Shown here piece after piece: positions 62,503 to 63,141 of a DNA stretch of 64,000 bases. The notes below the pieces were generated by a model. The model did not search any database. It worked only from the letters and a program-made list of their open reading frames with translations, and was not told the origin of the DNA. Origin of the DNA: Shigella phage sb3; sequence record PQ666541. One strand, 5' to 3'. Every line of letters starts with the position of its first letter. The stretch's first letter is position 1. The position numbers and the translations under genes were made by a program.

Positions 62503-62690
62503 TATTCTTCTACGTGCTGTTTACGACCTTTCTTATCAATAAAGGTATATTCAACGAATGTTCCAATATAATCTTTATCTACATCATGCGGACTATTAAT
62601 TGGGCATTTAGTACGGCAAATGCGTTCCCATTGACGAATAATTTCCACTTTGTTTTTAGGATCAAACGGATGCGGGTAATGTACTTTCAT
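62478..62690 (-). CDS. Hypothetical protein
   Basis: 70-aa ORF. Confidence 0.4.
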   Translation of the reverse strand: MKVHYPHPFDPKNKVEIIRQWERICRTKCPINSPHDVDKDYIGTFVEYTFIDKKGRKQHVEEYCLKVTWL

Positions 62691-63141
62691 AATCCACCAC
62701 TATTAAATCAATATCAGGAGTAAACATGTCGATTAATTTAGAAACCTTATCCCAATCACCGCCAGCAATACCACAACCTATGCGTGGAATGTAAATTACT
62801 GGTTTAAACAAAAGGGTTTCTGCCTGTTGATTTAATTCTATCATACAGTTTACTAAAGCACCATAATCAAGATTAGGACCCGGTTCGTATTGCGTATACA
62901 GGTTATAGCATATACCAAATCCCGTAGGATTATGTTTAAAAACAATAGACATATCGCCTAATTTATCACGAGAACCGTACTCAGTAGTGGTTTTATCTAT
63001 TTCTAAAATTTTAGGATAGGCCCTTGCTAATTGACCCGCTACACCTGAACCCATAGTATGAAAACAGTTGCACCCGTGCGCAATAATATTACCTTGAAGA
63101 AATAGGGCGACAATATCGCCCTTGATATATTTTACAATCAT
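62662..63141 (-). CDS. Macrodomain protein, TARG1/OARD1/DarG-like (putative ADP-ribose hydrolase)
   Basis: 159 aa; YIKGDIVALF...IAHGCNCFHTMGSGVAGQLARAYP and IPRIGCGIAGGDW align by eye with the TARG1 motifs (LAHCISEDCRMGAGIA; MPRIGCGLDRLQW). Confidence 0.6.
   Translation of the reverse strand: MIVKYIKGDIVALFLQGNIIAHGCNCFHTMGSGVAGQLARAYPKILEIDKTTTEYGSRDKLGDMSIVFKHNPTGFGICYNLYTQYEPGPNLDYGALVNCMIELNQQAETLLFKPVIYIPRIGCGIAGGDWDKVSKLIDMFTPDIDLIVVDYESTLPASV

Follow-up and report, generated by a model that had tools for sequence, protein, structure and literature searches.

The open reading frame (ORF) at 62662..63141 on the minus strand of Shigella phage sb3 (record PQ666541), within the 64,000-nucleotide stretch of DNA that was analysed and is called the window here, is the orthologue of the T4 gene tk.4, the product of which is also known as AdfM. 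It encodes an orphan antitoxin-like macrodomain that probably protects the phage from the host system DarTG2. DarTG systems halt phages by ADP-ribosylating phage DNA. The ORF can be regarded as the AdfM of Shigella phage sb3; a known counter-defence is confirmed, and no new one is revealed. The function is already known from a report on the T4 orthologue and from biochemical work on an analogue in the phage phiKZ. An earlier note on this DNA had described a 159-amino-acid ORF at 62662-63141 with TARG1/DarG-like features and had suggested a role in countering DarTG. The ORF list of the window gives exactly these coordinates, on the minus strand, for a complete frame of 159 amino acids running from ATG to stop, and the proposed role is supported by published genetics of the T4 orthologue (bioRxiv 10.1101/2025.11.20.689424). 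The accompanying remark that such a function had not been characterised for a T-even phage is outdated, as T4 tk.4/adfM has been published (bioRxiv 10.1101/2025.11.20.689424).

The protein is a stand-alone macrodomain of the ALC1/TARG1-like class. The Pfam profile Macro (PF01661) matches residues 22-136 over profile positions 2-117 of 118 (E=1.5e-8), and the score of 35 bits lies well above the curated cut-off of 22 bits, so the profile search recommended in the earlier note returns a significant result. Structure prediction, recommended there as well, gives a confident macro fold with TARG1 as its top match: the AlphaFold2 model, built on an alignment of 53 diverse homologues, has a mean predicted local distance difference test (pLDDT) value of 94.2 and a predicted template modelling score (pTM) of 0.89, and shows the three-layer alpha/beta architecture of macrodomains. 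In a Foldseek search of the PDB, TARG1 is found at E=3.4e-10 with template modelling (TM) scores of 0.73-0.84, and the best structural neighbours (BT1257/SCO6735, DarG, Poa1p and TARG1) are all ALC1/TARG1-like. A profile of the family compared with PDB sequences recovers the same group, with BT1257 at 7e-21, TARG1 at 3e-17, SCO6735 at 2e-16, Poa1p at 3e-14 and DarG at 2e-11 and 6e-10; the alignment to TARG1 runs from end to end. Among the PADLOC defence models, DarG is the sole match, and the match covers only the macrodomain part (E=1.3e-7; T4 Tk.4 gives 1.3e-9). By profile and structure together, the closest relatives are TARG1, DarG, SCO6735/BT1257 and Poa1p, and not MacroD, PARG or the viral Mac1 domains.

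The ORF is a genuine conserved gene, and a chance ORF is ruled out. Homologues of the macrodomain occur in 2783 of 50,697 phage records searched by tblastn and in 793 protein clusters of a large protein database, and near-identical copies of the window allele are present in public phage genomes, some under the label 'macro domain-containing protein'. In the alignment of 53 homologues, from which all conservation values given here are taken, sixteen positions are invariant: G8, H22, G23, N25, C26, G33, A35, D49, G62, N80, Y82, Q84, P119, G122, G124 and W130.

In T4, tk.4 is annotated as 'phosphatase; contains A1pp phosphatase motif' and lies between vs and tk.3, the same position that the ORF occupies in the window. 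The two proteins, of 159 and 155 amino acids, are 58% identical over 155/155 residues without a gap, and all of the family-invariant residues are common to both, including N25 and Q84. Given this full-length, gapless identity and the shared gene position, the window ORF is the positional orthologue of T4 tk.4 (AdfM) by homology and synteny. The function of the T4 gene was reported in November 2025, when growth of a library of T4 transposon mutants on a DarTG2-expressing E. coli host gave tk.4 as the sole significant hit (bioRxiv 10.1101/2025.11.20.689424). Its read counts were lowered specifically with DarTG2 present, a clean knockout made T4 sensitive to DarTG2, and the gene was named adfM, for anti-DarT factor macrodomain; the authors also remarked on the structural similarity of Tk.4 to DarG from M. 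tuberculosis (bioRxiv 10.1101/2025.11.20.689424). T4 that lacks both adfA and adfN stays resistant to DarTG2, and a further factor had been predicted (PMC11825919); this resistance leaves room for a factor such as AdfM. In phiKZ, gp104, likewise named AdfM, neutralises DarT2 and, in vitro, strips its marks from DNA (Cell Reports 2026, PMC13309987).

Residue equivalences at the active site are based on sequence and profile alignments and on a published structure-based alignment of SCO6735, BT1257, TARG1 and DarG. They were read from an alignment of eight sequences, comprising the window protein, T4 Tk.4, SCO6735, BT1257, TARG1, two DarG macrodomains and phiKZ gp104. The SCO6735 sequence was taken from the PDB search, and its numbering agrees with the published H24, V25, N27, K34, Q85, G87, K89 and G128; that of gp104 was translated from the Methods of PMC13309987. 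Both signature blocks named in the earlier note are present and conserved among the 53 homologues. The first ADP-ribose-binding loop, H22-G-C-N25-C-F-H-T-M30-G-S-G-V-A-G, is encoded by codons 22-36 (63034..63078, minus strand); within it H22, G23, N25, C26, G33 and A35 are invariant, and N25 is the counterpart of N27 in SCO6735 and of N23 in phiKZ AdfM. The second, diphosphate-binding loop, P119-R-I-G-C-G-I-A-G-G-D-W130, is encoded by codons 119-130 (62752..62787, minus strand). Here P119, G122, G124 and W130 are invariant and A126, G127 and G128 are at least 90% conserved; G124 is the counterpart of SCO6735 G128, and A126 occupies the position of TARG1 D125.

Between these loops lies N80-L-Y-T-Q84 (codons 80-84, 62890..62904, minus strand), with invariant N80, Y82 and Q84 and with T83 conserved at 90% or more. 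Q84 is located at the catalytic lysine position and aligns with K84 of TARG1, with K80 of DarG and with the essential Gln85 of SCO6735; the alignment of the family profile to TARG1 sets ...YtQ against ...iTK. The catalytic Lys84 and Asp125 of TARG1, looked for in the window protein by alignment, are absent, and Gln84 and Ala126 are found instead. SCO6735 and BT1257 have the same arrangement at the catalytic position (N-M-I-G-Q), and H22, N25, Q84 and G124, all four of them invariant in the family, align with SCO6735 H24, N27, Q85 and G128; the active site is of the SCO6735 type. The earlier assignment to a TARG1/DarG-like class is borne out by the profile and fold searches, which agree; it does not extend to the catalytic residues, since TARG1 K84/D125 and DarG K80 are replaced by Q84/A126.

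In SCO6735, the substitutions Q85A and Q85E abolish activity, N27S nearly abolishes it and G128E lowers it, and the role of H24 has been shown less cleanly than those of N27, Q85 and G128 (PMC9411070). On thymidine-ADP-ribose made by DarT, the enzyme acts faster than DarG or TARG1 do; it is inactive on guanine-ADP-ribose (dG-ADPr) and rescues E. coli from DarT (PMC9411070). In phiKZ AdfM, mutation of the conserved catalytic-site asparagine (N23A) results in less activity (PMC13309987). By analogy, the chemistry of the T-even protein is most likely of the SCO6735 type and not of the DarG or TARG1 type.

A model for the action of the protein may be outlined as follows. On infection, DarT2 ADP-ribosylates thymidines in TNTC motifs of single-stranded phage DNA and thereby blocks replication. 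The phage macrodomain, translated together with vs, would hold the ADP-ribose in a cleft between its two loops, H22-N25/M30-A35 and P119-W130, and cutting of the ribose-thymine bond would restore normal DNA. Gln84, held by Asn25, may orient the distal ribose while a water molecule performs the chemistry, as proposed for SCO6735 (PMC9411070); water-based chemistry is proposed because the catalytic lysine is absent. It is likely that the 58%-identical window allele acts in the manner of T4 AdfM, by hydrolysis.

Several points weigh against this model. The T4 genetic evidence consists of one preprint and one DarTG2 system, and in the wording of that preprint, enzymatic removal of ADP-ribose from DNA by Tk.4 'seems likely' (bioRxiv 10.1101/2025.11.20.689424). 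A literature search found no report of in vitro removal of thymidine-linked ADP-ribose (dT-ADPr) by any T-even Tk.4/AdfM protein, and identity between the window allele and the T4 protein for which a phenotype was tested is no more than 58%. The catalytic Lys80 of DarG, within the motif P-T-K, was looked for by alignment, and Y-T-Q84 is present instead, opposite the P-T-K of M. tuberculosis and T. aquaticus DarG and of phiKZ AdfM. The long 'mobile loop' of the SCO6735 subclass was looked for in the same way, and the loop of the window protein is of TARG1/DarG length. A longer loop, with five residues more than in DarG or TARG1, has been described as characteristic of that subclass (PMC9411070), and, compared with the window protein, both BT1257 and SCO6735 have 5-6 additional residues following the glutamine. 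As the long loop is absent, the SCO6735 mechanism is only an analogy; judged by its alignment, the T-even protein appears to combine a Gln-type centre with a loop of TARG1/DarG length. Finally, the catalytically dead SCO6735 Q85A still inhibits DarT by interaction (PMC9411070), and protection without hydrolysis is therefore conceivable.

This last point is the starting point for the best of the alternatives, in which the protein counters DarTG2 without catalysis, by binding and inhibiting DarT2 or by shielding modified DNA. Not only SCO6735 Q85A but also the inactive DarG K80A and TARG1 K84A lower DarT activity in vitro, SCO6735 most strongly (PMC9411070), and the lysine of DarG and TARG1 is missing from the window protein. 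However, the ADP-ribose-binding and catalytic set of H22, N25, Q84, G122 and G124 is invariant in the 53 homologues, which is the pattern expected of an enzyme, and the protein is without the C-terminal domain by which DarG binds DarT, as the PADLOC DarG model is matched at positions 3-144/329 only. A purely non-catalytic role is thus improbable.

An enzyme acting on small molecules is less probable again. According to the labels 'phosphatase', 'A1pp' and 'Poa1p-like' in databases, the protein would be either a phosphatase of ADP-ribose-1''-phosphate, as Poa1p is in yeast, or a deacetylase of O-acetyl-ADP-ribose, and Poa1p is a close structural neighbour; the labels 'phosphatase' and 'Poa1p-like', however, represent transferred annotation, and the sole known phenotype of an orthologue is sensitivity to DarTG2. 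Just as little weight can be given to a substrate other than DNA, or additional to it, in the form of uracil-linked ADP-ribosylated RNA or the product of another host ADP-ribosyltransferase defence. TARG1, DarG and SCO6735 do also reverse uracil-linked ADP-ribosylation of RNA, an activity found only in TARG1-like macrodomains among the hydrolases tested, and the family is widespread in phages of many hosts (the 2783 records mentioned above). Against this, no bacterial defence that makes uracil-linked ADP-ribose is named in the reviewed literature, and the phenotype of the single tested orthologue is DarTG2-specific (bioRxiv 10.1101/2025.11.20.689424). By analogy with these enzymes, an additional activity on uracil-linked ADP-ribose in RNA is plausible. 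Least probable of all is the erasure of the phage's own marks, namely the modifications that Alt, ModA and ModB place on host proteins such as RNA polymerase and S1, or the RNA-protein links made by ModB: modA and modB are encoded in the same window and arginine-specific macrodomains exist, with MavL as a cited example, but the two genes lie about 44 kb from the macrodomain gene, TARG1 and SCO6735 are reported to be active on Glu/Asp-linked protein ADP-ribose and thymine/uracil-linked ADP-ribose, and the read counts of tk.4 are reduced specifically with DarTG2 (bioRxiv 10.1101/2025.11.20.689424). Editing of the phage's own ADP-ribosylation marks had been offered in the earlier note as a second possibility, and no supporting evidence for it was found; the tested members of the class act on Glu/Asp- and thymine/uracil-linked ADP-ribose.

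Protection from DarTG2 by removal of thymidine-linked ADP-ribose is the reading preferred here, and the gene to which it applies has a localised pattern of divergence. In a DNA comparison with T4 in 30-nucleotide windows, only the body of the macrodomain ORF diverges, starting near codon 14 and continuing to the end of the ORF (62665..63100, minus strand). Identity is 26-30/30 upstream of 63102, falls to 9-27/30 inside 62665-63100 and returns to 27-30/30 from 62634 to 62485, within tk.3. At the protein level, identity to T4 is 100% for Vs, 99.4% for Vs.1, 99% for Tk, 96.7% for Tk.2, 92.9% for Tk.3, 87% for Tk.1 and 58% for Tk.4. The stretches conserved between the window and T4 alleles are the ligand-binding loops, and the remainder has diverged. 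At a threshold of at least 90% identity, the window-type allele is present in 312 phage records and the T4/T2-type allele in 224; another 159 records are 80-90% identical to the T4-type allele. From these comparisons, the locus looks like a site at which old alleles are exchanged as a cassette by recombination in the conserved flanks.

The window differs strongly from T4 at another anti-DarT locus too, that of gene 61.2/adfA, which encodes an anti-DarTG1 factor. The position between 61.1 and sp holds only a 118-amino-acid ORF (23280-23636, minus strand). In a tblastn search, T4 gp61.2 (208 amino acids) matches with 32% identity over its residues 74-208, and the match partly runs past this ORF; this second locus is thus also highly diverged or shortened. 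It is possible, if rather unlikely, that T-even AdfM represents a third mechanistically distinct lineage of thymidine-ADP-ribose erasers, with a Gln centre as in SCO6735, a loop as short as that in TARG1 and DarG, and a recruitment independent of that of phiKZ AdfM, and that the allele swap reflects adaptation to differing forms of DarT2 or to further substrates, for example uracil-linked marks on RNA. If the adaptive reading were true, the window-type (312 records) and T4-type (224 records) alleles would guard against different sets of host systems.

The source phage is a Tequatrovirus (T4-like), and over the 2 kb around the macrodomain gene it shares 96% identity with Shigella phage Sfk20 and with many other phages. 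Read along the minus strand, vs.1 (SLT-like) is followed by vs, the macrodomain gene, a gene for a 70-amino-acid DUF7202 protein, one for a 75-amino-acid zinc-binding protein, three ORFs of 58-62 amino acids, and tk. Directly upstream of the macrodomain ORF lies vs (63138-63485, minus strand), encoding a valyl-tRNA synthetase modifier of 115 amino acids. The stop codon of vs and the start codon of the macrodomain ORF overlap in the tetranucleotide ATGA (63138-63141, minus strand), as read directly from the sequence, and a GAGGA motif is located 11 nucleotides upstream of the start codon. The overlap suggests translational coupling of the macrodomain to vs. T4 likewise has a 4-nucleotide overlap between vs (61386..61733) and tk.4 (60922..61389). 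The Vs protein is 100% identical to that of T4, in which vs is the gene most strongly depleted in minimal medium (HIDEN-SEQ preprint, bioRxiv 10.1101/2025.11.20.689424).

At its other end, the macrodomain ORF shares its final 29 nucleotides (62662-62690) with the start of tk.3 (DUF7202, 70 amino acids), compared to an overlap of 4 nucleotides for tk.4/tk.3 in T4. The window protein has four additional C-terminal residues relative to T4 Tk.4, and model confidence is low at residues 156-159. Two ORFs on the minus strand between tk.2 and tk.3 are without a counterpart at this position in T4: one of 58 amino acids that belongs to phrog_3452, a family of unknown function (62102-62278), and one of 75 amino acids that matches the Pfam family Phage_zn_bind (PF23895, E=4e-29; 62275-62502). 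The DNA alignment of the window to T4 is interrupted between 62104 and 62476. The gene tk itself is at 61152..61733 (minus strand), separated from the macrodomain ORF by five small ORFs, or about 930 nucleotides; the phrase 'next to tk' in the earlier note is therefore loose, although the position corresponds to that of T4 tk.4. The same note had correctly placed ModA and ModB in this genome, where modA (17592..18191) and modB (18191..18811), both on the minus strand, are each 97% identical to their T4 counterparts.

Signals for transcription of the gene are less clear. A promoter scan gave 9 sigma-70-like sites, fewer than the 13.7 of chance expectation and none of them sensibly placed; its coverage does not include T4 middle and late promoters. 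A perfect GC-rich hairpin, AGGGCGAT-ATT-GTCGCCCT, is present at 63104-63122 (both strands), 19 nucleotides into the macrodomain ORF (codons K7-L13), and is followed by a T-rich run. Nearly exactly the same sequence occurs in T4, and GenBank OL631480.1 annotates a 'terminator' under the macrodomain gene. Although the scan flagged the hairpin as terminator-like, a terminator here is not supported, given a folding z-score of only -1.64 and a location within coding sequence.

A relative of the Gln type also occurs in a bacterium, Pelagimonas phthalicica (P0088, L004 6001-6459). It is 41% identical to the window protein and stands alone among housekeeping-looking genes (Peptidase_M23, Trp_halogenase). 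No darT neighbour was found beside this gene, the single bacterial homologue checked. It may be that cellular relatives of the phage macrodomain are likewise orphans, as SCO6735 is.

With this assignment, T-even phages now seem to hold a layered anti-DarTG toolkit that comprises AdfA, AdfN (a NADAR enzyme directed at guanine marks) and AdfM (a macrodomain directed at thymine marks). Several hundred Tequatrovirus records carry the label 'phosphatase' or 'hypothetical protein', which should be replaced by anti-DarTG2 macrodomain. At least two deeply diverged alleles are swapped among otherwise near-identical genomes, which is relevant to predicting how therapeutic T4-like phages will plate on DarTG2 strains. 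T-even AdfM does not have the catalytic lysine of DarG and TARG1, and its chemistry is easily testable.

Compared with the systems already described, the nearest is T4 Tk.4 (AdfM), although it differs from the window protein at 42% of residues, against 93-100% identity in the flanking genes. SCO6735 and BT1257 have the defining catalytic residues in common with the window protein, but identity is only about 26%, their long loop is absent from it, and SCO6735 is a cellular and not a viral protein. TARG1/OARD1 is alike in fold, being the top Foldseek match, and also removes thymidine-linked ADP-ribose. Its K84/D125 dyad, however, corresponds to Q84/A126, and it has a serine at the N25 position; as K84 and D125 are not present, the window protein is not a TARG1. 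Membership in DarG was considered and rejected. For the NCBIfam DarG equivalog, which has a cut-off of 250 bits, the protein reaches only 29.8 bits, over positions 2-142/338, and it has 159 amino acids compared to about 330, with no C-terminal DarT-binding domain (PADLOC DarG positions 3-144/329). No darT or other ADP-ribosyltransferase gene was found adjacent to the macrodomain ORF, where the neighbours are vs, vs.1, tk.3 and small ORFs. With a glutamine in place of the catalytic Lys80, and with the C-terminal domain and the darT neighbour missing as well, the window protein is not a DarG; it would work like DarG without being one.

Two other phage proteins follow a comparable strategy. T4 AdfN (gp30.3, NADAR; Nat Commun 2025, PMC11825919) has the same logic, as an orphan antitoxin-like glycohydrolase of T-even phages that undoes DarT marks. 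Unlike the window protein, it has the unrelated NADAR fold, is specific for the guanine marks of DarT1 and has no effect on DarTG2 (PMC11825919). The AdfM of phiKZ, gp104, is likewise an orphan phage macrodomain that acts against DarTG2, and it bears the same name; removal of the DNA mark has been shown for the phiKZ protein (PMC13309987). However, gp104 is of the true DarG type, with E=9e-25 to M. tuberculosis DarG, 133 bits on the PADLOC DarG model and the lysine of P-T-K retained. A common lineage of the two AdfM proteins was considered and rejected, since the BLASTP match is limited to a pair of short, weak segments (E=0.001 over 33 residues, and 0.74), compared to the match of gp104 to DarG at 9e-25. 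The window protein and phiKZ AdfM belong to different lineages of the same class, and their sequences point to independent recruitment.

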